Shown piece after piece: positions 3,001 to 24,725 of a stretch of DNA of 26,839 nucleotides. The notes under the pieces are model-generated. The model was given only the letters and a program-made list of their open reading frames with translations. It was not told the DNA's origin and did no database searches. How positions within the stretch are numbered: position 1 is the first letter of the stretch; each line of letters begins with the position of its first letter. The translations under genes were made by a program, and so were the position numbers. The DNA lies in the IMG/VR virus record IMGVR_UViG_3300044723_005676, positions 1-26,839 of that record, one strand, 5' to 3'. The stretch comes from a virus. Taxonomy: Duplodnaviria; Caudoviricetes.

Positions 3001-5057
3001 GTAACACTTGCTACATCTTTATTTCCAGCAAGGGCTTTATTTAATACATAAAGTTTTGAGTTTTCTTTGAACACCGTTGTAGCCGAAGAAGCCCTAGTGT
3101 AAGGATAATCATATAACTCATACCCAGTCCCGCTTCCACTCTCCACTTGACCGATATAACCATGTTCGCACCATAAGTGTTCATTAACTGATAAGGAAAC
3201 AGATGAAGTAAAAGTAATTGTTTTGTCGTCAAAATCCCAAGTAGCGGTCTGTCCCGTGGTAATTAAATCATTATATGGACTTTGGCTACTATAAATAATA
3301 TCGCTAGTAAAAAGAGTGTTCTTATTAATAATCACATCAACTAGTTTTGCTAAGGAGTTTCTCGCCTTAATATCCATAAAAGTTTGGCCTTGGTCTAACC
3401 TTCTTTCTGTTTGGTCTATTGAACCGTAAAAGACCTCATAATATAAAACAAAGTTTCCCTGTATTCTCTCAAGACCACTTGTGCTATCTAGGATATTATT
3501 TCCAAAAGTAATTGAAAGAATACCGTAGTCGTCGTTAGTGTTGGTAATTAAAGAGCCAATATCACAATATTTTACTGGATAAGAAGGTGCTTGAACCAAT
3601 CCCGACATACGGGATAATTTGCTCTCTTCAAAACTGGCGGAAGTAATATAAGTCCCGTCTAAGTGCGAGAGTCTTCTCCTATACACCTTATCGCCTTGTG
3701 TGAATGTGCTAAGTGAGGTTGTAGAGGTAAAAGCCGATTCTGTTTCTAAGCGACTATCTGCCTTCAAGGTAATTTCGTGGGTGCTGGACACCGAATCAAT
3801 AATGCAGACTCTTGACCCAATTTTAACTTCCATGTTCGCAACGAAGAACAGGTTTGGCCTTTCTTTGAGTTGCGTCAAAGAGTAGGTTCTCGGAGAAGTG
3901 TGTAGGGTTTCAATTGTTCCAACCTCAACCCATTCTCTCAAATTATCTTCTTGTAGGCGTTGATAGGCAACGACCCTATCATCAACAAAAACTCTGTTAG
4001 AAAGATTTTTTGTAATGTCAATAAGAGAAAGTTCAGCAAACCCTGCTTTATCAAAAGAATCTTCAATTTCTGCTTCATAAACCAAGGGAATGTTATTGTT
4101 AATTTCGGGAGAGTCATTATAGTAAATGTATCTTGTATTCCCAGTAAAAACTTTTGTAGATACATCATCATTGGTGTCTCTTTTTGCATTAATAAAACAA
4201 TCGTTATAATCTGTTAATGTAGTATATGTTCCAGATAAAACTGCGCTTTCGTTGCTTGTCCCATCATCGGGGTCGTCTAATTCTTTTAATTCATCCTTGA
4301 GAGTAATGCTATAATTAAAGCGACTATAATCAACAATTTTATTTCTGTAATCACTAACAGTAACAAATGTAGTGTTATCTCCACCCGTATTCAATAGAAT
4401 AGAAGCATCCGTTGAAGTGTTTGCTAAGGTCTTTGTTCTAATAAAATATTTATCGTTGTGGTCTAACTCGCCAGCAGTATCAAGTTTATCATCGTAAAAA
4501 TAGAAGTGAGGGCGAGCGCAAACTAACTTAGACACTTCCGTTTTAATTCCAGCAGTAATCGCAATTAAATTTGTGGTTGTTGATGGCCCTTTGAAAAGCA
4601 TAAACTTAACATCTTTAGCAATTTCACTTCCGAGTCTTGGGCTAAAGTGAAACTTATCGCCGTCTTGGTCTGCGCCGACCCCAGTAATTTGAGTAATTTT
4701 AGCAAAATGATGCATATTTTCATCATCAGAATGAATGAGAACAAAGTAATCGTTTGTGCTTAAATCCACCGAAGCCAAGTCAATCCCGACATTGTTAAAG
4801 GAATCAAAACAACGAATAGAAAAACCATCAGTAGCGTGAAGATTGGAATACTCCGTAAGCAAATCTGCTCCGCTTGTGATTTCATCAAACCTTGCGGCGG
4901 CAGGTGTAGCGGCTCCACTACTTAACACTAAAGAAAAGATTCTATTTCCTGCACTCAAAACAGGATTAAAGGTAATCAAAGGATTAGTAGGGGTATCATA
5001 ATTGTTGTTTGCAGGAGAGTTATAAGAAGTGATTAATCCACCAATTTCAACAGTCAT
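1..5057 (-). CDS. Giant tail/baseplate or host-attachment protein, >1685 aa, 3' end beyond the window (absent from the ORF track)
   Basis: ATG at 5057 overlaps the upstream TGA (ATGA) and follows GAGGAGGTGG. Manual translation (MTVEIGGLITSYNSPANNNYDTPTNP...GDRAGTRENESNLE) found no stop down to position 3. T/S/D/N-rich beta-type composition; lies downstream of the tape measure and LamG genes. Confidence 0.85.
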   Translation of the reverse strand, partial: MTVEIGGLITSYNSPANNNYDTPTNPLITFNPVLSAGNRIFSLVLSSGAATPAAARFDEITSGADLLTEYSNLHATDGFSIRCFDSFNNVGIDLASVDLSTNDYFVLIHSDDENMHHFAKITQITGVGADQDGDKFHFSPRLGSEIAKDVKFMLFKGPSTTTNLIAITAGIKTEVSKLVCARPHFYFYDDKLDTAGELDHNDKYFIRTKTLANTSTDASILLNTGGDNTTFVTVSDYRNKIVDYSRFNYSITLKDELKELDDPDDGTSNESAVLSGTYTTLTDYNDCFINAKRDTNDDVSTKVFTGNTRYIYYNDSPEINNNIPLVYEAEIEDSFDKAGFAELSLIDITKNLSNRVFVDDRVVAYQRLQEDNLREWVEVGTIETLHTSPRTYSLTQLKERPNLFFVANMEVKIGSRVCIIDSVSSTHEITLKADSRLETESAFTSTTSLSTFTQGDKVYRRRLSHLDGTYITSASFEESKLSRMSGLVQAPSYPVKYCDIGSLITNTNDDYGILSITFGNNILDSTSGLERIQGNFVLYYEVFYGSIDQTERRLDQGQTFMDIKARNSLAKLVDVIINKNTLFTSDIIYSSQSPYNDLITTGQTATWDFDDKTITFTSSVSLSVNEHLWCEHGYIGQVESGSGTGYELYDYPYTRASSATTVFKENSKLYVLNKALAGNKDVASVTTLTGTSDKGFHFRDGIKLTGNFNALADGETLVGTSDDASAKATGYNIDKVKNLDSDLDFNLDITGFSDDIVNTLIDFTILSVKGDNIKTVKLAPYMPLTLGREKDNRATPDDSFTTFAVISSSAGTSNKINCYSNTFDYSISIGTSVYKDGQFVGIFLGSRTVASDSPMYNVEVYLDRDITYSQLDTLQMGDGKKTRSFLFTNGAHLHGSKMVNYLGPNNLPIDFSLSSYYTQNPTETSLKQKFGADIIRIKNIEKGKLGQDKTYLMKNDTDKGRRQSYYGDSPLLNYYVEGLQGHPDLSGGLTVHSKTGTTNNNHHALATRGYKPIIGSSYVDREFTSSVDTNCVIQSSQPDVRISNQINNYDNPYDIRDKLYQIDPKAARLFLFCNSDRLLYSSTRKDSLMVAKASDADANKFLDAHGLLSISAPRKTNTGSTKNEIVGDSSTITNIDNDYKHSSIISSDKVLSDLKRIGLMRLTDVVYDWAFNPINPEFDIPKDRVIEATSIPFFNATTVKNGGTDLTVSSVDNGGIVMNDTVNNVATNDLILDIDTNQIIGFVTGLATDTVTNDKINIGFYNATDSGSRKYSVGDNVYFADADVLTETSRIIGRAEEETLLFRVAESLGNGVNIHMLKGVITNNDNPTSWTTYYREDAVADSDMPSSFYNLQKGTTHGIQTFLLPIAFEGLNRLFTIGTNNFIEPFFDFTVAKNSDGDLYTWSANKITQKTYAGSELLKFYQGLDVATGIASVEDSIGGLKVVALKTFNTEDEPLIQGITSPFLHEAALGYGFASPNKDEEGRFLTYPTYNIATTKEFYSAKTNTSGGAYLGFKPHLIAPSTVADNSVSSIKGTTLKKLNLDLTGENLFLKFIDLTGCYLVPAEEGKYYDSNDVVSGTSLASNHEVTVNDNKIIYVVSHEYDISENSGNPSCVLLTDELLVANTKYKIMQPNPICFWDKSPNKIRLNTLSKSYTKRMDSDSMYDSFPAFDIGDRAGTRENESNLE

Positions 5058-9846: not shown

Positions 9847-11658
9847 TCACCCCATTAGAATGTTATCCGTTTTGACGGTGCAAGAATGTAAATCTCTTGG
9901 CTTAATCGTAGCGGCAAAAGATACTGGCCCTTTATCGTCAGGAACAGTAATTGTGGTAGTATCAAGGAAATAATTCTTAAACTTTAGAGTAATTTCTTCA
10001 TCGGTGTCAGGTTTTGTAAAAGTGAACTCAACCATTTGTCCAGCAGTTATATCAACATTTTCTGTTTCATTCAACATATCGCTAAATAATTGGTCGTCAG
10101 TCACAACCGCTTCAAAAGAAATTTCATAAGAGCGTTGTGCAGGAATACCTTCCTTCATATCACGGTGTCCACCCATATATCTCTTATCCATAAGGTTGTT
10201 GTTAATTTGAATACTCACAGAATTAACCTTGAGGTATTGTTCTCCAAATGCACTAAATGTTCCTTGAGAAAAGAAGAATGGTGCGCCATAATCACTTCCA
10301 GCGTTCCAATTGAATAAGTCTGCGTTATCATCTCGTCCTGCTCTAGCAACATAGTTCGGATTGTTTGTGAATGTTAATGTGGTTGGGTCACTAACCGCCG
10401 CAGTAGTGGAGGCTGAAAGAACAACAGTTGTTGCACCAGAAATAGAAGAAATAGTTGTATTAGCAGGAATACCAGAATCACCAGTTACTACCATTCCAAT
10501 ACTCAGAACACTTGAATCTGCAACAGTTAAATTAGGAGATGAAATAGCAGCAGAACAGGCTTGAGTAGTATTACTATCTTTATAGAGGTCAGTAATACTA
10601 TCAACAAGGCGAGCGTTAATGTCCATCGTCATTTTCAATTCTTCACCTTCTGCCGCTTCAAGGGTTAATTGTTGGATTCTACAACCTCTAGCAATACGCG
10701 CAAAAGCAACATCTTCGTTTTCAGTAGAAGAATCTCCAAAAACTGCATTAGTCGTTAATACTGCGGGGTCTTTCGCAAGGGTTTGCTCTAAACTGAAAGA
10801 AGGCAGTTGGTCGGTGTTTAGTTCTTCAACTGTATAAGTGATTAAACCCGATGGTCTTGGAACAGTAGCACTATCAAAAGTAAGGTTTTGAAAACCAGTT
10901 AATACAGAAAACTGACTAAAATCAAAGGGAGGAACGACTTTATTAGAACCTTTCATTGTTCTGTAAAAGAGTGGCCCAGTAGTAGCGACGGCAGATGAAC
11001 CACTAGAACCTTTGATAAAAACATCATTATTACTATTTGTAGTAACTCCAGCATCAGTTGAAACAGCAGTTAAAGTTTGAGCCGTCCCTGTATAACTAAT
11101 TCCACTAACCGCACCAAGAGCATAATAAAGCCAAGAACCAGTATTGGCCACTAAGTTTAAACTACCGTTATCAGCCGTTCTAATTCCTTTGTATTGGAAA
11201 GAGAAGTTTCTCGTTCCGCCAAGACCAAGATTCATTTGTTTAATTTCTTGGCTTAGGTTTGGAAAAGTTACGCTTTCCATTAAACCTAACCAATTATCTG
11301 CTAATAGTGCTTCACGACCAGACTTAAGAGGATGGGGAGAAGGAGAACCATAAGCCAATAATAATGCATATGCAAAAACTTGAGGGCTAGTTGGAGCAGT
11401 TGGTGCTGAACCTAAAGTAAATGCAGTTTTAGTATTTGAAGTAATGCTATGGGTAGAAAGAAGGGTATCATTATCGTCATAGATTTCAATTAGACAACCG
11501 ATGTATAGATTTGGAACAAGCCTATATACATCAGTAAAAGCAGTTTCAACGGTTACGACGCTTCCCGAAACACCACCAGTAATAGGCATGTAAATATCAT
11601 GCTCTGGAATTAAAGTTGTTGATGCTCCGCTACCTAAGAAAATTTCATTATTCACCAT
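9847..11658 (-). CDS. Major tail (tube) protein with inserted accessory domains (603 aa)
   Basis: Tube-like core segments (LPSFSLEQ, GCRIQQLTLEA..GEELKMTMD, PFFFSQG, KVNSVSIQINNNL, RSYEISFEAVV); lies upstream of chaperone and TMP. Confidence 0.8.
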   Translation of the reverse strand: MVNNEIFLGSGASTTLIPEHDIYMPITGGVSGSVVTVETAFTDVYRLVPNLYIGCLIEIYDDNDTLLSTHSITSNTKTAFTLGSAPTAPTSPQVFAYALLLAYGSPSPHPLKSGREALLADNWLGLMESVTFPNLSQEIKQMNLGLGGTRNFSFQYKGIRTADNGSLNLVANTGSWLYYALGAVSGISYTGTAQTLTAVSTDAGVTTNSNNDVFIKGSSGSSAVATTGPLFYRTMKGSNKVVPPFDFSQFSVLTGFQNLTFDSATVPRPSGLITYTVEELNTDQLPSFSLEQTLAKDPAVLTTNAVFGDSSTENEDVAFARIARGCRIQQLTLEAAEGEELKMTMDINARLVDSITDLYKDSNTTQACSAAISSPNLTVADSSVLSIGMVVTGDSGIPANTTISSISGATTVVLSASTTAAVSDPTTLTFTNNPNYVARAGRDDNADLFNWNAGSDYGAPFFFSQGTFSAFGEQYLKVNSVSIQINNNLMDKRYMGGHRDMKEGIPAQRSYEISFEAVVTDDQLFSDMLNETENVDITAGQMVEFTFTKPDTDEEITLKFKNYFLDTTTITVPDDKGPVSFAATIKPRDLHSCTVKTDNILMG

Positions 11659-12393: not shown

Positions 12394-12600
12394 TTAATCA
12401 TTCCATACATCTGTATCGTATTTTCCATGCCACGCATCTATTTGGTCTTGGTATAAATCCTCTTTGCATTCTTCACAAAGTTTTCTAGGGTCATAACCCA
12501 TAAACCTTGCGTGTTCATTAACAGAATCGTCATATTGCTTATAATGTGGTGGTCTTTTCTTACAAATAACACATAGTGATTTAATAATACCTTTCCACAT
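12394..12600 (-). CDS. Small CxxC...CxxC zinc-finger protein (68 aa)
   Basis: CVIC and CEEC motifs; ATG 12600 after TAGGTGA. Confidence 0.65.
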   Translation of the reverse strand: MWKGIIKSLCVICKKRPPHYKQYDDSVNEHARFMGYDPRKLCEECKEDLYQDQIDAWHGKYDTDVWND

Positions 12601-12609
12601 ATTTATCAC

Positions 12610-13938
12610 CTAGTCAATAAAATAAACAATATCAGTTTTACTTTTAAGAATGTCCATCGCTTCTTTCTTGAGAATATCATACTTCTCTTTCGTTGAAATA
12701 TTTCCACCCGTTTCTGCAATCAATACGCTTTGGTCGTCATGCCGAATAATTTCAGCCGCAACAAGTTTAGTTGTTGCTTCGTGAACGGCGGCAGGGACTC
12801 TTGCATTTCCAGCAACATATGAAACAAAAATAGAATTGCGAACATGATAAGGATAGTCCTGCAAAAAGAAAATGCGTCCTTCTTCTCCCAATAACCAATA
12901 GTCGCCCGTTCTTCTCATGTCTTCTTTATCTGTAAATGATGTTAGGGTGCAGACTGTCGGGATTTCATCAGTAGCGATAAATGTTCCTGTGCTTGAACCA
13001 GTATTTGTTGCGGCTTGGGACATAGTGATGTTGGTTGAATCCACAATCGCAGTAATGGTCGTTCCCGAAGGAATATGGTTATTGTTATCGTCAATTTCCA
13101 TGCCTACTTTGAGTTTAGAAGAATCAGCAACCACTAAATTAGTGCTGGCGTTAGTGTGCGTAATTGCTTGTTTTGTCGTCGCTTTGAGAACACAATCTGC
13201 CCCATCATCCCCCGAAAGTAGGGATGAGAAGAGGACAGTCCCTCCATTTCCGTCCTCCTTTTGGGCAAAGAAAAAGTCCGAAAGCGATAAATTAGAAGAT
13301 GTAAGACTTTTTGAGGTTGTTGCTCCTGTATATTGAGAAGTGCTTGGAAACTCTTCATTAACCAAATGAGCAATTTCAGTAGTGGTTGTTTTAATCCCAA
13401 AAGTGTTACAAAATTCATCGTTTCCTAATTGATTAACAGTATTCTCAGCGACCATTTCAAACTCAACACCACTATTTGGTAGTTGTAAAATAATAGAATG
13501 AATATCTCTAAAGTTATCATGTAGGGCAATTTTGGCTTGAGCAGAAGCAATCTCTTTATAGCCACTACCAGACCAAACTAACAGAGAAACAATTTTACGA
13601 ACCTTCATCTGCCTTAGTTGAATAAAGCCAACATATCCGCCGTATAAAGTTTGGCCCGGCTGATTAGAGTATTGAAAATTATGAATTTCCTTTTTAGTAA
13701 TAATTGGACGATAACTTCTTTTTAGTTTATCATCAACCATCCCTTCAATTCTCTTAATGATAGCCCCGACTTGCTTAACAGTCGGATAGGTAGTTGTTCC
13801 AAATTCTGGGACTTGAAGCAAATGTGCTACTGACTTAAAATCAGTATAGAAACCATAGCCATTTTCGTAGGATTGTGCTACTCCCGAACCAGTATGATAG
13901 GCATTAGTATAATCGCTTGGTGATGAAGTGATTGACAT
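12610..13938 (-). CDS. Head-tail adaptor (HK97 gp6/SPP1 gp15-like) enlarged by insertions (442 aa)
   Basis: C-terminal VSYVAG..VPAAVHEATTKLVAAEI matches the adaptor Y.AG..VP..(I/V)..A motif; N-terminal helices (IKRIEGMVDDKLKR); position between head and tail genes. Confidence 0.7.
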   Translation of the reverse strand: MSITSSPSDYTNAYHTGSGVAQSYENGYGFYTDFKSVAHLLQVPEFGTTTYPTVKQVGAIIKRIEGMVDDKLKRSYRPIITKKEIHNFQYSNQPGQTLYGGYVGFIQLRQMKVRKIVSLLVWSGSGYKEIASAQAKIALHDNFRDIHSIILQLPNSGVEFEMVAENTVNQLGNDEFCNTFGIKTTTTEIAHLVNEEFPSTSQYTGATTSKSLTSSNLSLSDFFFAQKEDGNGGTVLFSSLLSGDDGADCVLKATTKQAITHTNASTNLVVADSSKLKVGMEIDDNNNHIPSGTTITAIVDSTNITMSQAATNTGSSTGTFIATDEIPTVCTLTSFTDKEDMRRTGDYWLLGEEGRIFFLQDYPYHVRNSIFVSYVAGNARVPAAVHEATTKLVAAEIIRHDDQSVLIAETGGNISTKEKYDILKKEAMDILKSKTDIVYFID

Positions 13939-13941
13939 TCA

Positions 13942-15555
13942 TTAGTCCTCCATATCATCTACTTGGCCTGTAATTTCTACATCGTAAAAATCTACTAATT
14001 CTTCAACTCTTTCTTTGAAAAGGCTAAGATGCTCCTGCATTTTTCTTGAAGCCCTTTGACTTGAACTATAAACACTTGTGTCCCATTCAGCAACATGCGC
14101 TGTTTTATAGCCTAAAGACACTTTAATCTCTTTAAGCCTTTTTGCTAATGCTTCCATTCTTTGGTTAAATTTACCGTCTTTTGAACTAATCCCTCTTGTA
14201 TCTTGAGAAGGTAGAATAAACTTAACTTCTATCATATTAACAGTAACTTTATTAATTTCGTCTAACTGAAAGTCCAAAAAAGCAATATTACTCTGACTTT
14301 CAACTAATTGCTCAAGCAAATCTGTTGTGTTTAATTCATATGAATAAGTTGCCGTTTCCGAATCCCCTTTAAGAAAAGTGTCGGGAATCATATCTTCAAG
14401 GGTAAATTGTGTAATGTTTTTATAGTTTCCATTAGTGGTTTCTGCTGGTAAATACACTTCCCCTTTAAAATCCTCTTCTTGATAATAATCAGAATCATCT
14501 TCATCAACTTCAAACATTCCCTTACTGAACTTAATTTCTGTTCCTGCAACAGAAGTCCATCCACCAGCAATAACGCCCCTATCTTTAATTTGTCTTGATT
14601 TGTCATCAAGTTGGTTTTGTGCTAAATTTTCCAAAGCACCTTGCGCCCCTTTAAAGGAATTACCCACAGAATAAAAAATTGTGCTTAGGTCTGGATTAGA
14701 TATTCTGAATGTAATACCTATATTTTTATCTATGAATTGTCGTGTTGATTCGTTCCTAGCAATAGATGTTTGTAAATCTACCAGCAGATTTACAAGTTGA
14801 TTCTTAAAATCGTTTTTAACTCTTCCTTTTTTATATTTTTCTTGCATTAATTTATATTCTTCATCCCCTATTTCATTAGCGGCTCCTAAAATTTCATTAA
14901 TGCTCTCTTTTAATTTTGCTACGGAAAGTTTTTTATATTGTTCTGTTAAAGTTTTTCTTTGCAAAGTTCTTTGTTTTTTGGCCTTATTGTATGCGGTCTT
15001 AAAACTCTTTCTTGTAGAAGTTTCTCCCAATTTTTTAATCGTTACATCTAAATATAAAGGGTTTGGTATAAATTTCGGTTGTAAATCATATTTTCTTTTG
15101 AAGGCCCCTAAATCAAATTTTGGAAGTTTTTGCATATCTCTACCAAATTTATATCCCGACTGTCCACGAAGTCTATCATAATCAGCAGAACCGACATGCA
15201 CTTCGTAAAGACTTGTGGCTTCCGCATACTCTGTCAAAATATCTCTTAAGTTTTCATCTTCACCAATATACTGCGCCCATGCTTCTCTATCTTTCTTATA
15301 GAAGTCAATAGCAATTTGTTCATCTTGAAGAATATCGCTAACGATATTTCCTAAAATACCAGCAAAATTTTCTGCTTCTTCTTTATTAAGATTTTTATAG
15401 AGGGTTTCTAATGCCTTAGTTGTTTCTGCGACAATACTTACATGGTCTTTAGAAGTGGCGGTTAAGTATCTTAAAATGTGTCCACGAATAACATCTTTCT
15501 GTTTGGGCATAATTAGGGTGTCGCCCCCAAGACCCCAAGAAACCTGATATTCCAC
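13942..15555 (-). CDS. Hypothetical protein of about 537 aa (charged, largely helical)
   Basis: Long ORF; likely GTG start at 15555, 6 nt after GAGGTG. No family recognised. Confidence 0.7.
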   Translation of the reverse strand: MEYQVSWGLGGDTLIMPKQKDVIRGHILRYLTATSKDHVSIVAETTKALETLYKNLNKEEAENFAGILGNIVSDILQDEQIAIDFYKKDREAWAQYIGEDENLRDILTEYAEATSLYEVHVGSADYDRLRGQSGYKFGRDMQKLPKFDLGAFKRKYDLQPKFIPNPLYLDVTIKKLGETSTRKSFKTAYNKAKKQRTLQRKTLTEQYKKLSVAKLKESINEILGAANEIGDEEYKLMQEKYKKGRVKNDFKNQLVNLLVDLQTSIARNESTRQFIDKNIGITFRISNPDLSTIFYSVGNSFKGAQGALENLAQNQLDDKSRQIKDRGVIAGGWTSVAGTEIKFSKGMFEVDEDDSDYYQEEDFKGEVYLPAETTNGNYKNITQFTLEDMIPDTFLKGDSETATYSYELNTTDLLEQLVESQSNIAFLDFQLDEINKVTVNMIEVKFILPSQDTRGISSKDGKFNQRMEALAKRLKEIKVSLGYKTAHVAEWDTSVYSSSQRASRKMQEHLSLFKERVEELVDFYDVEITGQVDDMED

Positions 15556-15565
15556 AATAAACACC

Positions 15566-16207
15566 TCACATTAACCATTTAGCCCAAGCCGCCCCTTTTT
15601 GAATGGCCGAACCTAAATGAAGGCCACTTGAGGGAGGCTCATATGACATTTGCCCTTGAGCATCAATCCAATATGGCCTTCCGTAGCCATCTGTTCCCGA
15701 AGGAGGAATAGGGTAGCCCGAACCGTTATTCATGGCCCCCTGCATTTGCTGATATTGTTGAGTCTGCCCCGTGATTCCAGCAATAGCCATTCCTGCCGAG
15801 GGCTGTTGTGCGCCAAAACCCTGCGACTCAAGGTATTGTTGTTTAGCCATTTTTCTTTGCATAACCACTTCGCTATTGATTGCCGACTGTAAAATCTTTT
15901 GAATATCCAAATCAATATTTTCTTGCGTAATTTTCTGATATTCTATTAAAGCATCATTATTAATAGTGATTGCACCACCAGTATTCGTAAATGCTAATTT
16001 ACTAAGCATATCTGAAACCACTCTTTGGATAACATCTTCCATTAATTGCTCCATAGCAGTTAAAAACATTTCACCATGATATTGAAAAAACTCTTCAACA
16101 TGGTTCTCCTGCAAAGAAAGCAAATTATTTACATTCTTAAACTGTGCATCATTTTGTGCTTGAACCGCATTTAATACGGTTCCATTACTTGTTCCAAATA
16201 CTCCCAT
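15566..16207 (-). CDS. Q-rich helical protein with a WW-like motif and a C-terminal amphipathic helix (213 aa)
   Basis: GRPYWIDAQGQMSYEPP near the C-terminus; ends LGSAIQKGAAWAKWLM. Confidence 0.7.
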   Translation of the reverse strand: MGVFGTSNGTVLNAVQAQNDAQFKNVNNLLSLQENHVEEFFQYHGEMFLTAMEQLMEDVIQRVVSDMLSKLAFTNTGGAITINNDALIEYQKITQENIDLDIQKILQSAINSEVVMQRKMAKQQYLESQGFGAQQPSAGMAIAGITGQTQQYQQMQGAMNNGSGYPIPPSGTDGYGRPYWIDAQGQMSYEPPSSGLHLGSAIQKGAAWAKWLM

Positions 16208-16209
16208 AT

Positions 16210-16866
16210 TTATTCCTCTTTTTCTTCCTTTTGTTCAGGTGCTTTTACTCCGTTTTGAATCATCAGATAATTAAGTCTGTCTGTCAAAATATTGATTTGC
16301 CCGACCAATTCTATGGCCTCGTTGGTGGCCGACCTGTTATCTTGTAGGGTGGGTGGTTTAATAAAATAACCTGCGGCGGTGAGGGAGGCAACCTCGGTTT
16401 TGCTAAGGTGTGTCATGGGCTTCCCCGACAACGCTTTAGGCATTTTTGGCTTGAAGGCTTTGAAGTCTAAACCATGTTTTTCAGCAAGAATCTGTTGCTC
16501 AAGCATTTCCAATTGTTTGAACATAGAAGAGTGTTTAGGGCAGTATGTTCCCTTGAGAGGACGGCCTTTGATTACTTTTTCTAAAGGAATAGGAGGTCGT
16601 AAAAAATCCCCTTGCTCCCAAATATGATGCATTCCACAAACAATACAACGGTCTTTGAGATTGAATTTTTTACCATATTTAAAGAAGAGGAAGGACTTAG
16701 GCTCTGGAGAAAGAACGCGAATAAGTTCCTTTTCTTTCTTCTTTGGTTTAATAGCCATAAATTGGTATTCAATAACTTGTCCTGCCGTTCTTGCTTGTTC
16801 AATCGGATTCAACATGGGGTTGAATTGCGTTGGTGCATTTTGTCCTATAATTTGTTGTTGATACAT
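16210..16866 (-). CDS. Putative Zn-binding, coiled-coil protein (218 aa)
   Basis: CIVC...CPKH ligand set; C-terminal heptad-like helix AIELVGQINILTDRLNYL. Confidence 0.65.
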   Translation of the reverse strand: MYQQQIIGQNAPTQFNPMLNPIEQARTAGQVIEYQFMAIKPKKKEKELIRVLSPEPKSFLFFKYGKKFNLKDRCIVCGMHHIWEQGDFLRPPIPLEKVIKGRPLKGTYCPKHSSMFKQLEMLEQQILAEKHGLDFKAFKPKMPKALSGKPMTHLSKTEVASLTAAGYFIKPPTLQDNRSATNEAIELVGQINILTDRLNYLMIQNGVKAPEQKEEKEE

Positions 16867-16871
16867 AATAA

Positions 16872-17540
16872 TCAGTAATCCTTTATCATTGTAGTAATTC
16901 CTCTATAAACCATTTCGGGTTCCGACTTTGCTGATACAATATACTTAAAGCAAGGTATTCCTTTATCGTTTAGTTTTCTCATACCGTATTTGAATGGTTC
17001 AAAAATCTCATGCTTATCCATTGGTTGTTCTTTTTCTAACGGGTATTTCTTTCCCCATATGTCATGTTTATTTGCCCAAATCCCTACTGCTATTGGATAA
17101 TCAGTATCTTTCTTTTTCTTACCATTAGACCAATTATTTGAAACGATTGTATCAACTAAATATTTCCATGCTAACTGATGGTCTAAATTAGAATTGCTAT
17201 CTAAGTGTCGGTGGTCTATCATAAAAATAACATATTTAACGCGGCGTTCTTTCATGTCTTCTTCCCATTTTTTCCAGTAAATCGCTTCCCCTCCAACATC
17301 TGCACTTTTTACTGTATGAGAGTTTCCATCAATTTTAATATTTTTTCTTGTTGCTCTATGCAAACCAACGGTTCTTTCATTAATTTGATGGACTTCGCCT
17401 CTTGTTCTTAATTGGTGACTAAGTGTTGTTTTTCCAACCATTGTTGCTCCATAAACTCCAAAGTTAATTGCGTGGACTTTTTTGTAAAAACCTAGTATTG
17501 CTTCACCAACAAGGATAGCAAAGCCTGTCATTAATGACAT
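16872..17540 (-). CDS. Arf/Sar-like small GTPase with a hydrophobic N-terminal helix (222 aa)
   Basis: G1 GATMVGKTT, G2 RTVGL, G3 DVGGE, VIFMID strand, G4 ANKHD, G5 SAK. ATG 17540 overlaps the upstream TAA (TAATG). Confidence 0.85.
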   Translation of the reverse strand: MSLMTGFAILVGEAILGFYKKVHAINFGVYGATMVGKTTLSHQLRTRGEVHQINERTVGLHRATRKNIKIDGNSHTVKSADVGGEAIYWKKWEEDMKERRVKYVIFMIDHRHLDSNSNLDHQLAWKYLVDTIVSNNWSNGKKKKDTDYPIAVGIWANKHDIWGKKYPLEKEQPMDKHEIFEPFKYGMRKLNDKGIPCFKYIVSAKSEPEMVYRGITTMIKDY

Positions 17541-17758
17541 TAATGACCCCACCCGTTTAACAAAGTGTCAAACAGGAAACCCATGATGTTTATACCAAAA
17601 ACACCAAGAATGTTTCCAATAAGGAAACCTGAAAGACAGGCGCAAGCACCCCAAAACCACGCTCGCATTTTCAAAAAGAAAATGTCAGCAGAATGCGCTC
17701 TTTGTTGATTATAAGCATAATCCGAATCGGAAAAGCCCATTAAATCTCCAAAGACCAT
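17540..17758 (-). CDS. Small membrane protein (72 aa)
   Basis: Gly-rich hydrophobic segment WFWGACACLSGFLIGNILGVFGINIMGFLF; SD AGGTGG. Confidence 0.75.
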   Translation of the reverse strand: MVFGDLMGFSDSDYAYNQQRAHSADIFFLKMRAWFWGACACLSGFLIGNILGVFGINIMGFLFDTLLNGWGH

Positions 17759-17768
17759 TTAACCACCT

Positions 17769-18158
17769 TCATTGTAATGTGGCTAAAAATTCACTCCCAA
17801 TAGTGTTTTCTTCCTGTTCAACAGGTTGGGTATAAGCAAATGGAGAAGTAGTAAATTGCTTTGCGCTTTCTCGCATTTTGACTTTTTGTTGTTCATCTCT
17901 AGCCTTTCTTTCCCAATACGCTGCAATTTTTCGGTCAAGAAGCCACATCTCAATTCTATCATTTAAAGACAAATCAAAGACGGCTTTCATCACCATGATT
18001 GCACCAATTGTTCCTAAACCAAATAGAACAGAATGGGCCAATGGGCCATATGGGAAATTCATTCCAAATGCCGCATATGCCCAAACATTAGTTCCACTTA
18101 ATGCACCAACAAAAAGAATAGTCATAACTAAACGGGTATCTTGGTTAAGAGCCGCCAT
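17769..18158 (-). CDS. Two-TM membrane protein with a charged C-terminal helix (129 aa)
   Basis: Hydrophobic segments LVMTILFVGALSGTNVWAYAAF and SVLFGLGTIGAIMVMKAVF; SD GAGGTGA. Confidence 0.8.
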   Translation of the reverse strand: MAALNQDTRLVMTILFVGALSGTNVWAYAAFGMNFPYGPLAHSVLFGLGTIGAIMVMKAVFDLSLNDRIEMWLLDRKIAAYWERKARDEQQKVKMRESAKQFTTSPFAYTQPVEQEENTIGSEFLATLQ

Positions 18159-19199: not shown

Positions 19200-20528
19200 T
19201 CACGAAAGGTTCACGATTTTACCTTGACCCTTGAAGTAAGAACAACCCAATTCTGCAATCGTGCGGTATAATGCTCGGTTGCCGAGTTGTCCAACACCGA
19301 ATGGGTTTCCGTTGCTGATACCGTCCTCAAAGTATTGAGTAGGCTTCATAACGGCCATCCAAAGATGGTCGGTATCAAGAAGAAGCATATCCGAAATGGT
19401 TCCCGAATCAGCCGAAGTGCTTTGCATTTGAGCAACAGGAATCAAAGGAATGTCGTAGTAAGTAGCAACACGGAATCCGACTTCTGCACCTTTAACACCA
19501 CGAACACCGTTCACGGTGGGAACAATTTCCTTTCTGTCCATAAATCGCTCTTGGCTCTGCAACAGGTCGGAAAGCGTTTGAAGGGTGTCATATCCAGTAA
19601 GGATAACCTTTGGAGAACCACCGTTCTGTCGCAATTCACGAAGCGTTGCGTTAAGAATGCTTAAAGTGAATGGGCGAGAACCACCACTTCCATAGTCTTC
19701 TGCACCATTAATCACCGAATCAAGGAAAGAAGCGGCATCACGGTTAGAACCGTAAATGTGGCTCACGGTGTTATCGTTAGCGGAAGCGGCAAATAGCGAA
19801 TCTGCGGCCATTTGGTCTTGCTCTGCGGCAGACGAAATGATTTTGTAAAGAGAAGTATAGTTTCTCAAAATGTTCGCAGGGCCGTTGGTTGCGCCAGTAT
19901 CACCATAAACTTCTAATGGAGTCATAATCATCAAGTTTTGAGATTCAGCGTGATGCTTACCCATATCTTCTCTCATTTGCGCTCTAATATCACCGATACC
20001 ATCGTCAATTTGAGCCATTTCCATAGCCAATTCGCTGAAATCAAACTGATGAGCGACGGTCTTTGGACTCATAAAGAGCGTGGAGTATTCGGGAGCAATA
20101 GCAATCAAACCATCACCAGAGGTTGAAAGAGAAGCGTTTTCGGGAACACCACCGATACTATCAATTCGGGGTGCATCCGTTCCGACTAAATCCGTTCCCG
20201 TCTTACTGAAAGAATGGGTGTTGCCCGTTCCACCAGCAGGACGCTTTGAGAGGACTCTCCAACCACTTGAGGAATATGGACGCTTGGCCATAACCGAGAG
20301 AGCATTCACTTCTCTGTTGAGCATAGACCAAACTTTCTGCCCATAAAGCACATTGTAAAGGTTTCCAGCAATCCCAGTAATAGGGGAAGTTTGAGTTGCG
20401 GCATCATGTCCACCATGAATACCGCTAACGGTTCCAGCCGTCTTTAAGAGCATATTATTTGCTCCATTAAAGTTAAGGCCGTAAGTTTGTGCTTCTAAGT
20501 CTGCAATCGTGTTAATATATCCTACCAT
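19200..20528 (-). CDS. Major capsid protein, HK97 fold (442 aa)
   Basis: Follows protease-scaffold. Recognisable segments: LYGQKVWSMLN.E.NAL, GGVPEN, PKTVAHQF..SE, PKVILTG, GFRVATYYDIPLIP, QGKI; style of archaeal head-tail virus MCPs. Confidence 0.92.
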   Translation of the reverse strand: MVGYINTIADLEAQTYGLNFNGANNMLLKTAGTVSGIHGGHDAATQTSPITGIAGNLYNVLYGQKVWSMLNREVNALSVMAKRPYSSSGWRVLSKRPAGGTGNTHSFSKTGTDLVGTDAPRIDSIGGVPENASLSTSGDGLIAIAPEYSTLFMSPKTVAHQFDFSELAMEMAQIDDGIGDIRAQMREDMGKHHAESQNLMIMTPLEVYGDTGATNGPANILRNYTSLYKIISSAAEQDQMAADSLFAASANDNTVSHIYGSNRDAASFLDSVINGAEDYGSGGSRPFTLSILNATLRELRQNGGSPKVILTGYDTLQTLSDLLQSQERFMDRKEIVPTVNGVRGVKGAEVGFRVATYYDIPLIPVAQMQSTSADSGTISDMLLLDTDHLWMAVMKPTQYFEDGISNGNPFGVGQLGNRALYRTIAELGCSYFKGQGKIVNLS

Positions 20529-20537
20529 GTTATCACC

Positions 20538-21725
20538 TCAAAGGTTGCCTCCATAAGCCATTTTATGGATTGTGTTCCAATCCATTTCGGCTAATTCATC
20601 CATAGATGGGAGTTGGATTTGTGCCTCTTCTTGAGCCTTCAAGATTTCAGTCTTTTCAGCCGTCAAGGACTTTCGGAGAGCAGTAAATTCGTTCTTAAGA
20701 GAAGCAATTTCGCTCTGTGCATCATATTGCGACTTTGCGAGAATGTTTTCACGGGTTCCCTTTTCAGCCTCAAATCGTCGGGCAAATTGCTTTTGGAGGT
20801 TATCGTAAGCCAACTTCTCCAATTGTTCTTGGCGGAAAGCCTCGTAAGCCTTCTCAATGTTTCCAACGGAAAGGTCAAGGGTTTCTAATTCGGTGTTTTC
20901 AAATGCCTTAACAACGGGCATATCGCTGGCTCTTGGCTTACCGTTATCAATAACGATTCTATCGGCAGGTTCGCCAATTTCAACGCCAGCACCATCAAGG
21001 GTGGACACATAAGCCTTAGATTCCATAGTGGGGTCTTCGGGTTTGGAGGTGTCCATATCCTCAATTTCTTCGTTGTCCATCATTTCATAATCGCCCTTTT
21101 CGGCCATTCCTTCTTCATCGTCTTCTTTTCGGAGCATGTTCACTTCATTCATAAGTGCGTCTAACTCTTCCAATGCTTTTTCCAGTTTGCTCATGTTTTT
21201 CACCTGTGTTTTTTCTTGTTTCAAAATATCAAATTTTGCTTCGGGGTTAATTCCTTTTTCGCAGATAGTGACTTCGTGTAATTCTAATTTACTAATTTCG
21301 TTGTATTGTCCTAATTCGGGATGGCTTTTCTTAACCTTATGAATTGCTTGTCCTCCAATACTAAATGACCTTAATGAACCCTTTCTAATTCCTCGGTTAA
21401 TTTCCTTAGCCTTTTCAATATCATCTCTTAACTTGATAACAACAAAGAATCCTACATCATCAACTTCGGTTTTCCACAACTTACCATTTTTATCTCGGTA
21501 TGATTTTACAACTTCTCCGACTTGAACATTTGAATGATTTGTCATTACATTTCTAAACTTAGCATTCTCCATGTATTTATTAACTGCTTCATTGAGTGCT
21601 TTAAGAGTAATTAAATCGTTTTGTTTATCAACAATTTCAATGCTTGCATATCCACCAATCATTAAGTCGTCGCTTTTGAGAATCCTGAAATCCTGTGGTT
21701 GTTCCCGCTTGAGTAGGAGAGACAT
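20538..21725 (-). CDS. Prohead protease (HK97-type) fused to an acidic coiled-coil scaffold (about 395 aa)
   Basis: IGGYAS..VDKQND, MTNH (catalytic His), RSFSIGG (catalytic Ser), LHEVTIC.KGINPEA; helical scaffold-like C-terminal half. Confidence 0.92.
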   Translation of the reverse strand: MSLLLKREQPQDFRILKSDDLMIGGYASIEIVDKQNDLITLKALNEAVNKYMENAKFRNVMTNHSNVQVGEVVKSYRDKNGKLWKTEVDDVGFFVVIKLRDDIEKAKEINRGIRKGSLRSFSIGGQAIHKVKKSHPELGQYNEISKLELHEVTICEKGINPEAKFDILKQEKTQVKNMSKLEKALEELDALMNEVNMLRKEDDEEGMAEKGDYEMMDNEEIEDMDTSKPEDPTMESKAYVSTLDGAGVEIGEPADRIVIDNGKPRASDMPVVKAFENTELETLDLSVGNIEKAYEAFRQEQLEKLAYDNLQKQFARRFEAEKGTRENILAKSQYDAQSEIASLKNEFTALRKSLTAEKTEILKAQEEAQIQLPSMDELAEMDWNTIHKMAYGGNL

Positions 21726-21754
21726 TTCCAACAACCCTTCGTTATCACTTCAAG

Positions 21755-21770: not shown

Positions 21771-24725
21771 TTATCTTGGGATTTTCTTCTCCGAAAACCT
21801 GTCCTCATAGATGTTCCACAAACCCTCATCCCCTTCTTTATCAGCAGGTTTTTGCTCATATCCAGTCCAAGCCAACCACATTTTCTGTTCTCCCACGGGG
21901 AGGTAGCGAACATGAAACTTCGTTTCAAACTTATTCCCTTCCAAGAAGTATTCGTGATACCCGTTCCTTTGGATTCCAAGTTTCACGACTCCGCTATCAA
22001 CGACCTTTTCGTTATCGGTATTTTGAGCAACCTCCGCAGGATATTTTCCTGCCGCCCCGAAAAGGTCAAACATTTCTTCTTCATTTTGAGTGTCAATTAA
22101 CCAATTAATTGTTTCATCTCCAAGTTTCATAATCATGTTTAGATTGTCGTCTTGGCGAGAATACAACTTAAATTGACCTTCTCTGTATTTTTCGGGTGTT
22201 TTATAGTCTGCTTTGAGCATAGCGTATTTGTCCGTAAAACTAGAATCTCCTTGAATGCAGTTTTGATATTCTTCTAAGGCTTGTTCTAATGGGCCATAAT
22301 CTATACCATCTATCTTATTATTAAGAAAATCATCTATTACTGGTAATAATATATCACAATCTAAAGAATCAACGGCTTCCATAATATTCTGTTTTTCTTC
22401 TTCATAATTGTCTGCCCAAAGTTCGCCAGCGTGTTCAGGGTGTTTTTGCACATGAGCATATACTTTATCCCAACCATCAAATAACTTAACAAACGCATCT
22501 AATGCTGCGATGCGATTTTCTTTAACAACTTCTTTTAATTTTTCACAGCATTCGCCGTCTTTATCTGAAGAGTCAATAGTAATATCTCCAATTTCTTCTT
22601 CGGGTTCTTCCTCCCTACTAACTAAAATTGGAGACTTTAGAAGCATTTTAAGAAGACCATCACCATATAATTTACCATTTCTTAGAGAAATATGTTCTCT
22701 TTGGTTGGCCCATTTCCCTAAGTCCTGTAATCCACCATCTATCACATCTTCATATAGGTCTTTATGCTTAGAAGCCAAGAAATTATGAACTTCTCTAACA
22801 GTTTTTTCTCCATTCTCTTGAAGATAATTAGTAATAGCAACTGTCAAAGTTCCTGCCTTTGTTTTCATAATTTGCTCTGCTTGGGATTTCCAATCGTCTA
22901 AATGAATGGCGGCATTCTTTGACATAAGATTATTTTCTTCAAAGCCATAAACTGTAAAGCCTACCATGTCAGACTTACAAATAATAGTGGCTGTTCCATG
23001 AATGTGGTCGGTAATAGTAATACCTTTCTTCAATCCCTCAATAGAATAATTAAGAGATTTTTTAGTATCTTGGGCCAATAATTCCAAAGTGACTATTTTA
23101 TCTGGATATTCTACTTCGGGTATTTCAATAACCTTTGCAGAATAAAGAGTATATCTTTCTCCAGCATTCTTTACTTCATCAACTTTGACTCGGATAATTT
23201 CGCCAACTTCTGCTGAAATTTTGGTATTAAGTGCTTTGCCGACATTCATATATTTAATGCCGTCAATTTCCTGTGTAAATTTGTTTTCTTCAACAACAGG
23301 CCCAACCCCAACAGTATAAGAATATAAGTTGCTTTTGGTTTTCTTTTTATCAAGAACAATAACATCTAAGTCCACAAACTTTTTCCATTTAATCCACTTA
23401 GGGTTTTTCTTTGTCCCAATGTAATAAGTAGAGGTAGCATCTTTAATCACCACCCCTTCGGAAGTAGGCATCTCCATAATTTCTTTTGCATATTCAGCAA
23501 TATCCTTTAAATTATCTGCACGACGAGTATCTTTCTTTGAAGGAAACTTTAGAACATCGGCAGAGTGTTGAGCATAATTGTTGAACATGATAGTCATGCG
23601 GTCTTCCAATTCCTCATCAAGAAGAGTTTGGTTTTCGTGTCGCATAATGTCAAAAACATGACATTTAAGAGTAGCCTTCGGATATTTGTTTTTGAAAACA
23701 TGGGCGATAGTGTCTGCTCTATGAAGGGGTTCATCCTCGTCAAAGAGAATTAATTCTGCATCAAGAATACAATCTCCAAAATGTTTTGCCTTTAACTCAT
23801 CGGCAATTTCTTTACACTTATCTGTAATTAACTTCTTGTTAAACGAAAAAATCTTAATATTATTATCAATCTTTTGCAGTTGGATTCTCATGCCGTCATA
23901 CTTTTCTTGAACAAACCATTCTCCACTAAATCCTTTTAACTCTTCAATATCATCAATATCAAAAATACGATACATTGGTTTATTGGGAATAATAAAATCA
24001 GTAAGGGCCTTTTCTTCTTCGGATTTCTTTTCTTTTTTGATAGTAAAAGATTTTTTTTGTTTTTCGGGGGCAACGCCTTCAATATCAGTAAGTTCATCTA
24101 ATTCTTTTTCATCGTATCTTGAAAGCATTAAAAGTTCTAACATCTCCATAGCGGCTTCAACTGCTTTTTCGGTGCGTTTGGAGTCTTTTCCATCTCCGTA
24201 ATGCTCAATAATATACAGGGCTATGTCGTCAGGTTCTAGGTCAAGCCCTTCTAAGCCGTATGTAATGTCGTCGGGAGGAATGTCTTTAATTGCATAAACC
24301 TCTTCGGGCAGAGCCTCTTTATCATCCCGTAGTGCGTAATGAACAAACTTCACCATTTCTTCGGGATTCTCAAGGAGGGTTTCCAAAACTTTTCCTTTGA
24401 ACCTCTTAGCGAACGGGTCATTCACCAAATCGGAAGAATAGCGAAGAAGTTTAATGGCCTCAAAAAGTTCCTTTGCCTTGAGAGAGGAAGGGTCTTTAAT
24501 ATCGTTGTTTTCTATGAGGTCTTCCGAAACGAAGTCTTTCATTTCATTCCCTGCGGCATCCAGTTCATTGTATGACTCAACGATAGTTTCCACAACATTT
24601 CTCCAGCGACTCCCATATTCTTGAGGGTCGTTGGCGGCAGAAAGATATGCTACTCTCGTTTTCTCAAACAAGCGAAGAATCTCTTCCGAAGGACGCTTAT
24701 CCTTCTCAATGTTTGAGAGGCGCAT
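21771..24725 (-). CDS. lig: Multi-domain ATP-dependent DNA ligase (984 aa)
   Basis: Motif I QEKYDGMR (K275), III ILDAEL, IIIa HVFDIM, IV EGVVIKD, V WIKWKK, then an OB-like region; long N- and C-terminal extensions. Confidence 0.9.
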   Translation of the reverse strand: MRLSNIEKDKRPSEEILRLFEKTRVAYLSAANDPQEYGSRWRNVVETIVESYNELDAAGNEMKDFVSEDLIENNDIKDPSSLKAKELFEAIKLLRYSSDLVNDPFAKRFKGKVLETLLENPEEMVKFVHYALRDDKEALPEEVYAIKDIPPDDITYGLEGLDLEPDDIALYIIEHYGDGKDSKRTEKAVEAAMEMLELLMLSRYDEKELDELTDIEGVAPEKQKKSFTIKKEKKSEEEKALTDFIIPNKPMYRIFDIDDIEELKGFSGEWFVQEKYDGMRIQLQKIDNNIKIFSFNKKLITDKCKEIADELKAKHFGDCILDAELILFDEDEPLHRADTIAHVFKNKYPKATLKCHVFDIMRHENQTLLDEELEDRMTIMFNNYAQHSADVLKFPSKKDTRRADNLKDIAEYAKEIMEMPTSEGVVIKDATSTYYIGTKKNPKWIKWKKFVDLDVIVLDKKKTKSNLYSYTVGVGPVVEENKFTQEIDGIKYMNVGKALNTKISAEVGEIIRVKVDEVKNAGERYTLYSAKVIEIPEVEYPDKIVTLELLAQDTKKSLNYSIEGLKKGITITDHIHGTATIICKSDMVGFTVYGFEENNLMSKNAAIHLDDWKSQAEQIMKTKAGTLTVAITNYLQENGEKTVREVHNFLASKHKDLYEDVIDGGLQDLGKWANQREHISLRNGKLYGDGLLKMLLKSPILVSREEEPEEEIGDITIDSSDKDGECCEKLKEVVKENRIAALDAFVKLFDGWDKVYAHVQKHPEHAGELWADNYEEEKQNIMEAVDSLDCDILLPVIDDFLNNKIDGIDYGPLEQALEEYQNCIQGDSSFTDKYAMLKADYKTPEKYREGQFKLYSRQDDNLNMIMKLGDETINWLIDTQNEEEMFDLFGAAGKYPAEVAQNTDNEKVVDSGVVKLGIQRNGYHEYFLEGNKFETKFHVRYLPVGEQKMWLAWTGYEQKPADKEGDEGLWNIYEDRFSEKKIPR

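Follow-up and report, generated by a model that had tools for sequence, protein, structure and literature searches.

What is a small GTPase with Arf-like motifs doing among the structural genes of a tailed virus, and is it an Arf at all? An initial annotation, made from the sequence alone, had recognized such a gene in a 26.8-kb linear virus record, called it specifically Arf-family and placed it in a putative euryarchaeal virus; we followed it up across the whole stretch of 26,839 nucleotides (hereafter the window). Taxonomically, the window is the structural region of a magrovirus (a Poseidoniales tailed virus) and belongs to the Magrovirales, magrovirus group B, Aoguangviridae-like, an assignment based on an HK97 capsid, a prohead protease, a sheathless tail tube, a DNA ligase inside the structural module and close homologues in Poseidoniales virus YSH_150918, the type of the Aoguangviridae (PMC10768690), whose gp088 is 80% identical to the GTPase. 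A tail chaperone and a tape-measure-like gene are also encoded. In the consulted part of PMC5434244, magrovirus groups A and B are characterized by a ligase within the structural module, and part of group B by a split PolB; PolB is in two pieces in one relative (L010). The euryarchaeal attribution is thus borne out by magrovirus gene content and the YSH_150918 homologues, with the Poseidoniales host itself being a literature inference for magroviruses, of which no member has been cultured (PMC10768690).

Table 1 Genes of the window discussed in the text, with positions counted from its first nucleotide.
Feature	Coordinates	Strand	Length (aa)	Details
Tail tube protein	9847..11658	-		PF18906 E 1e-4; phrog_290 E 1e-8
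Cassette gene 5	15566..16207	-	213	Gln-rich
Cassette gene 4	16210..16866	-	218	Soluble Cys/His protein
Small GTPase (cassette gene 3)	16872..17540	-	222	Own viral family, Arf/G-alpha side of the Ras superfamily
Parts of the GTPase (residues)				Predicted N-terminal hydrophobic-then-amphipathic helix 1-22; G1 31-38; G2 Thr57; G3 DVGGE 81-85; G4 155-160; G5 203-205
Cassette gene 2	17540..17758	-	72	One predicted membrane segment; stop overlaps GTPase ATG
Cassette gene 1	17769..18158	-	129	1-2 predicted membrane segments, then a charged helical tail
Major capsid protein	19200..20528	-		phrog_24667 E 2e-26; 25% to HCTV/HVTV capsids
Prohead protease/scaffold	20538..21734	-		PF04586 E 2e-9
ATP-dependent DNA ligase inside structural module	21771..24725	-		PF01068 E 6e-28

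Some features of the structural region deserve separate mention. The ligase, directly upstream of the prohead protease, is a 984-aa protein with long N- and C-terminal extensions flanking an adenylation domain at residues 262-448. A 540-aa ORF (13942-15564), lying between the cassette described below and a neck gene, with well-conserved neighbors, is poorly conserved (15 of 80 loci, median identity 35%). The tail tube protein (median 40%) is far more variable than its neighbors, and it shares with the neck-region protein at 12610-13938 a similar low-complexity, beta-rich insert (about 'ADSS.L..GM....D').

The GTPase ORF is a real gene under purifying selection, with a dN/dS of 0.05-0.11 (eight closest of 50 equal-length pairs) and 364 relatives among 591 candidates in a protein search, the 120 listed being 70-100% identical. 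The start codon, an ATG at 17540, shares bases with the stop codon of the gene upstream (TAATG), with a GGTGG element 5' of it, and the aligned homologues share the same start position; a GTG at 17552 was rejected as the start because the homologues begin at the ATG. All motifs quoted by the initial annotation are present, in place, in the minus-strand translation (RTVGLH 56-61, DVGGE 81-85, YWKKW 88-92, VIFMID 104-109, WANKHD 155-160 and SAK 203-205). All 32 aligned homologues are identical at residues G36, K37, T38, T39, T57, D81, G83, G84, E85, W89 and W92, and equally at N157, K158, D160 and S203-K205, and with G1-G5 intact the protein would be expected to bind and hydrolyze GTP. TIGR00231 (small_GTP) matches all 32 of these homologues at scores under its cut-off, an AlphaFold model (mean pLDDT 72) has a G-domain fold, and the chain terminates after G5, leaving no C-terminal tail.

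Two details of the protein bear on how it might work. Glu85 occupies the position of the catalytic Gln, as the initial annotation had pointed out; the Glu is indeed found in 120 of 120 close homologues, but it does not stand as a fixed adaptation, since among 70 distinct orthologues of the sister clade the G3 residue is Q in 44, E in 20, D in five and H in one (which rules out E85 as a family-wide catalytic change), and a relative 59% identical to the window's protein (P0121) has Q. Bacterial Ras-like rows of our alignment likewise have E here. As judged from these sequences, Glu at G3 appears to be a sub-clade trait at a position that is tolerant rather than specifically changed, and such tolerance would fit partner-assisted catalysis. 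The second detail, a non-lipidated N-terminal helix, was correctly anticipated: the Gly2 myristoylation site is replaced by Ser2, and the model contains a hydrophobic helix at residues 3-22 (pLDDT about 60), hydrophobic in its first half and amphipathic and basic in its second, with a moment of 0.56 versus 0.51-0.82 in six Arf references. One hydrophobic segment (Kyte-Doolittle 19-mer >=1.5) is present in 57 of 59 proteins of the window's clade (clade B) and in three of 70 from a second clade (clade A), and Glu13 within the N-terminal segment is invariant in clade B. The helix more likely lies at the membrane surface, or dips into it shallowly, than spans it.

Beyond the single gene, the larger finding, absent from the initial annotation, is that the GTPase is the third member of a conserved five-gene cassette, with genes 1 and 2 upstream and genes 4 and 5 downstream, which in the window's clade has a late-gene position, flanked by head genes and neck genes of the same strand. 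Among the best 80 of 590 loci chosen by capsid protein, the GTPase is held by all 45 with >=3 kb downstream and the five genes occur in order in all 36 with >=4.5 kb downstream; where the two proteins were compared, over 48 loci, median conservation is 78.8% for the GTPase and 67.9% for the capsid protein, the GTPase being ahead in 33. Hydrophobic segments are constant in the two upstream proteins, with one or two in gene 1 (52 of 52 homologues) and one in gene 2 (54 of 54). Gene 4 conserves C74, G78, W83, G101, R102, T107, Y108, C109 and H112 (C74 and C109 in 68 of 68, H112 and R102 in over 90%), and its predicted model has a pLDDT of about 85-91 over residues 41-130; it matched no family in Pfam, PHROG or the PDB (best E 0.29 in a PDB profile search, Atlas matches under 0.9). 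The Cys and His residues likely form a Zn site and Arg102 is a candidate catalytic (arginine) finger. A predicted complex of the GTPase (residues 20-222) with the gene-4 protein (25-200), GTP and Mg scored 0.01, with the partner fold uncertain, and is uninformative. The Gln-rich gene-5 protein has a highly conserved C-terminal segment, near-identical in eight sampled homologues, that ends mildly amphipathic (mean moment 0.38). Transcriptionally, a scan for sigma-70 promoters and terminators, using a sigma-70 model unsuited to archaea, returned hits at chance level, and one RNA run gave three short contigs, two on gene 4 and one on the capsid gene, with none on the GTPase.

The cassette is also a site of insertion. 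Of 71 clade-B loci, 25 have >150 bases between the GTPase and gene 4, a space mostly filled by an unrelated ORF of 68-201 aa (L001, L003-L005, L020, L024 and others), and most of these ORFs start with MW-x-x-ILK, possibly a protease-cleavage or capsid-targeting tag; a 71-aa ORF of the window (12394-12609) loosely shares this start, and ORFs with AW-x-hydrophobic-hydrophobic-K motifs are numerous in clade-A loci. Some clade-A loci have, between the GTPase and gene 4, a small inserted ORF that looks like AbrB/MazE (L159 8761-8940, L179 1951-2148).

The five-gene order extends well beyond the window's clade. A family-profile search of 1.84 billion representatives gave 80 hits, many of them fragments, including a second group with about 28-36% GTPase identity. 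The clade-A viruses (80 loci) reach 118 kb, with a capsid related at 41-45% and an intact PolB (three records checked), and repeat the order (five loci read), with their genes A1-A5 present in 78-80 of 80 loci. In clade A the cassette lies away from the capsid gene, is followed by a sixth membrane gene, and precedes a Cys-rich terminase-small-subunit-like gene. Profile-profile comparison between clades B and A (hhalign) gave 99.95% for the GTPase, 96% for gene 4 and 75% for gene 5, the last with 58 HMM cross-hits to its counterpart; gene 1 matches its positional counterpart weakly (two cross-hits, E 0.005), and gene 2 had no sequence match to the clade-A gene of the same position and size. A third clade (L176) keeps the order; in that virus a thermosome-like chaperonin gene (2820-4481) lies directly upstream of the cassette, and the Cys/His motif of its gene-4 protein is without the His. 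In a distant tailed virus (L206/L208), a 74-aa hydrophobic gene, a GTPase and a Gln-rich gene directly precede the head genes. No family-profile match was found in the haloviruses HCTV-1 and vir335 (capsid about 25%), in a search in which two magrovirus controls matched, and tblastn against phages and plasmids gave no match.

Cellular genomes contributed little. A pattern scan of 185,579 species genomes returned two loci, both in one Maricaulis MAG (G005; L081, L082, L177-L179), in which the cassette is found on three contigs, distinct from one another and magrovirus-like; these look viral and are likely misbinned. A profile search of cells, which covered 401 genomes of that MAG's phylum, gave hits at E<=1e-4 in 27, of which the MAG alone was strong and the rest were generic GTPases. 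Distant family members (P0183, P0193, P0196, P0197 and P0198) have mostly bacterial-labelled Atlas neighbor clusters and partial Pfam Arf tags, one of them (P0197) lying on a 573-kb contig that may be cellular or proviral, and together they may represent an undescribed cellular branch of the family.

Functionally, we tentatively read the GTPase as a late, virus-run membrane-remodeling switch within its cassette, most plausibly serving progeny release, a possibility that we prefer without holding it firmly, and each functional step of which we infer. Late in infection the GTPase would sit at the inner side of the host membrane, attached by its N-terminal helix, probably constantly rather than in a toggled manner, since the short retractable interswitch of Arf is missing. 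The two small membrane proteins could act as landmarks for it or form a pore or neck, while the Cys/His protein would be a GAP-like partner that supplies Arg102 and times the GTPase, which would account for the tolerance of G3 towards Q, E, D or H. A scaffold or effector recruited by the GTPase may be the part of the Gln-rich protein, and the switched, virus-made complex would then remodel the membrane, most plausibly releasing progeny. A membrane role is favored by the nearest folds and profiles, which are those of membrane-acting GTPases (see below), and has a precedent in ArvA, which in Haloferax brings about vesicle formation together with a Zn-ribbon partner, as described in the consulted part of PMC10927574. 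On the other side, strong hydrophobicity of the N-terminus marks clade B and is rare in clade A, genes 1 and 2 have little or no sequence match between clades, and unrelated ORFs have inserted in a good third of clade-B loci. The curvature mechanism of Arf and Sar1 cannot simply be assumed where the short interswitch is absent, and lysis in the lineage of HCTV-1 (lytic, and the closest cultured relative searched) needs no such GTPase, as that virus gave no match. A bolder version, which we consider unlikely, is a self-contained machine, made up of the Arf-related GTPase, a dedicated Zn/Arg GAP, the scaffold and both membrane proteins, that would bud or rupture the membrane of marine group II archaea for release; its GTPase family would be a deep sister of Arf/Sar1/G-alpha, preserved outside Asgard archaea chiefly by tailed viruses.

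Acting on the membrane would suit other membrane tasks, late or early, as well as it suits release. The same anatomy would fit a membrane-anchored, GTPase-switched device for host takeover or organization (a block of division or superinfection, or assembly tethering) rather than release, a reading we think somewhat unlikely: the clade-A cassette, away from the capsid gene and ahead of the terminase-like gene, and the lack of a cassette GTPase in lytic HCTV-1 speak for it, whereas the same-strand position between head and neck genes in the window's clade, and the absence of any match to a known division-inhibitor or exclusion family (Pfam, PHROG), speak against it. It is improbable that the five proteins are instead packed in the head to act at entry, as a membrane channel or signaling device during DNA injection. 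Such a role would suit a cassette among structural genes, one that receives inserts with a possible capsid-targeting or protease signal (25 of 71 loci), and the placement of the L206 set directly before head genes; however, the cassette proteins themselves lack the MW-x-x-ILK N-terminal motif, the virus is equipped with a tail tube and a gene resembling a tape measure, and a GTP switch with a partner would suit the cytoplasm. Late membrane remodeling, with release as its most plausible outcome, stays our preferred reading.

Evolutionarily, the initial claim of specific Arf membership survives as an affinity. In a wide structure search the top matches to the model were Arf6 (Z 16.5, rmsd 2.6, 162 aligned), SR-beta (15.8), an Asgard Rag (15.7) and Sar1 (15.3), followed by two G-alpha chains (15.0 and 14.9), Arl13B (14.7) and the best Rab (14.4), all structural matches being 10-20% identical to the GTPase and ranks within 1 Z counting as ties; no MglA chain was among the top 50 folds listed. 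By Foldseek E-values, Rab, Ras, G-alpha and Arf could not be told apart. When a profile was made from 25 family members, its leading matches were Arl3, GerdArfR1, Gq, EngA, Arf1 and Sar1, and Rab, Ras and MglA are absent from the best 60 of its 866 matches; PDB searches with the single sequence and with a clade-B profile were insignificant (E>=0.03). For a tree (82 rows, 174 columns), family rows were chosen by a profile of the viral protein and reference labels were assigned from motifs and Pfam tags; it contained one Sar1 row, one G-alpha row (helical insert removed) and three MglA-like rows, had no SR-beta, Rag, Ras or ArvA rows, and one Arf row without a P-loop match was dropped. In it the viral family forms one clade (support 100/99, stem 1.1), which the best tree places as sister to Arf+Sar1+Asgard+G-alpha (90/86, unstarred) and outside Arf+Asgard+G-alpha (94/81).

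Set against published criteria for Arf membership (from the consulted part of PMC2063696), the GTPase has the N-terminal helical extension and departs in most other respects. The distance from the switch-I Thr to the G3 Asp is 24 (23-38 across 28 family rows), against 19 in 19 of 19 Arf/Sar1/Asgard/G-alpha rows and mostly 23 in Rab. Arf Asp26, present in 14 of 14 Arf/Sar1 rows yet in one of four Asgard rows, is Thr33 here and T or S in 120 of 120 close homologues. The signature wDvGGqXXXRxxW retains its GG and final W, but w is A or S, q is E and R is W in all 120 close homologues; the Arg of RxxW is kept in three of 28 family rows, DxGG..W is common to G-alpha, and the W also occurs in MglA-like rows. 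Loss of Gly2 is a weak criterion, as Asgard ArfR and Arl8 lack it too (bioRxiv 10.1101/2024.02.28.582541, consulted in part). The Pfam Arf family (PF00025) scores 17.4 bits on the GTPase, missing its curated cut-off of 22.3, and is carried by some distant family members; among 32 close homologues, Pfam matches were to MMR_HSR1 in 29, Roc in 21, Ras in 12 and Arf in two. SAK at G5, which had been taken as more Ras/Rab-like, is present in an Asgard Arf-like protein (P0199) as well and was discarded as evidence against Arf. We conclude that the GTPase is Arf-related, on the Arf/Sar1/SR-beta/Rag/G-alpha side, and not an Arf by these criteria, belonging to its own, largely viral, family.

Accordingly, a true but eroded Arf, with an Asgard archaeon or a eukaryote as its source and still toggling helix against interswitch, seems quite improbable. 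The top fold and profile matches to Arf6, Arl3 and GerdArfR1, the GG and Trp92 in register, the few family rows that keep RxxW and the Arf genes reported on an Asgard mobile region (PMC11529989, consulted in part) would agree with it, and AU tests, which reject no alternative, allow nesting with eukaryotic Arf/Sar1 (p-AU 0.163); against these stand the long interswitch in 28 of 28 family rows, the missing Asp26, Gly2 and signature Arg, the low identity to the structural matches, and a separate, long-stemmed clade outside Arf+Asgard+G-alpha. Least probable of all is descent from prokaryotic MglA/Roc/ArvA-type GTPases with a convergent or ancient Arf likeness and work as a timer or assembly chaperone without membrane bending, for although placement beside MglA (p-AU 0.116) or beside Roc (p-AU 0.198), the outcome named beforehand as refuting the Arf assignment, is absent from the best tree and yet survives the AU tests, and although the Rab-like interswitch, the E at G3 of bacterial Ras-like rows, the W of MglA rows and the mostly bacterial-labelled next Atlas clusters agree with such descent, the fold and profile rankings, the G3 Asp that MglA lacks and the best tree (without ArvA) favor the Arf side.

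Compared with known systems, the family is closest to the Arf GTPases (Arf1/6, Arl3, Arl8, Sar1 and GerdArfR1, PDB 8OUM/8OUN), which give the best fold Z and profile scores and share the N-terminal helix, the absence of a C-terminal tail, TxG at G2 (in the window's clade), DxGG and the Trp at +7. Unlike them it lacks the pre-G3 Trp, varies at G3, has a longer and more hydrophobic N-helix and a basic loop inserted before G4, and is viral, with dedicated partners. SR-beta, Rag/Gtr and G-alpha lie no more than about 1.5 Z below Arf6 in fold score, and G-alpha shares DVGG..KW. SR-beta has a hydrophobic anchor. In contrast to G-alpha, the viral GTPase has no helical domain, and no SRX or roadblock partner was found by Pfam. 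ArvA (OapA) is likewise an Arf-like prokaryotic GTPase with an N-terminal amphipathic helix and weak PF01926/PF00025 labels, encoded in the ArvABC (OapABC) operon of Euryarchaeota and DPANN next to a Zn-binding protein proposed as its GAP (PMC10927574, in the part consulted). The viral cassette differs in being viral and in having two membrane proteins and a Gln-rich protein as neighbors, ArvA having been compared by description; searched for DUF2073 (arvB) and DUF2072 (arvC), a scan run without a positive control, the four cassette neighbors gave no Pfam family at E<=0.1. MglA, Roc and bacterial Ras-like proteins are also prokaryotic Ras-superfamily members, the interswitch being long in Roc and bacterial Ras-like proteins, but Asp81 is invariant, unlike in MglA (G3 GTPGQ/TxxG), the window has no Pfam match to an MglB roadblock, neither the GTPase chain nor the next gene has a COR domain match as in Roc, and its N-terminal helix, together with a separate clade in the best tree, sets the family apart from both. 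The top BFVD matches were Rab, Ran, Ras and Arf GTPases of giant eukaryotic viruses (9-21% identity), which are reported to carry eukaryotic-type GTPases (PMC9546365) and whose proteins group with eukaryotic families in the tree, whereas the present family belongs to tailed viruses of prokaryotes and comes with partners of its own.

In the literature on magroviruses, Poseidoniales viruses and small GTPases of archaeal viruses and phages, we found no description of the cassette; GTP goes unmentioned in PMC11706807, PMC5434244 and PMC5332604 and has one unrelated mention in PMC8651126, the parts of the supplements of PMC10160649 and PMC11706807 that were searched gave no match, and other supplementary tables may annotate the gene. 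Its GTPase nature is already flagged in databases, as at least five homologues among the 120 listed are auto-labelled 'GTPase SAR1 family protein'.

The presumed hosts of magroviruses are among the most abundant archaea of the surface ocean, and in the consulted part of PMC10791045 the exit of tailed archaeal viruses from murein-less hosts, and the egress genes involved, are described as uncharacterized. The cassette, with a GTPase better conserved than the capsid, is a concrete object to express and assay, and, if the bolder version of a self-contained release machine is true, it would be the first known case of a GTP-switched egress system among tailed viruses of prokaryotes. For the GTPases themselves, the family adds a non-Asgard, viral branch, probably beside Arf, Sar1 and G-alpha, and its combination of an Arf-like helix and GG/W with a long interswitch bears on the order in which Arf features arose.
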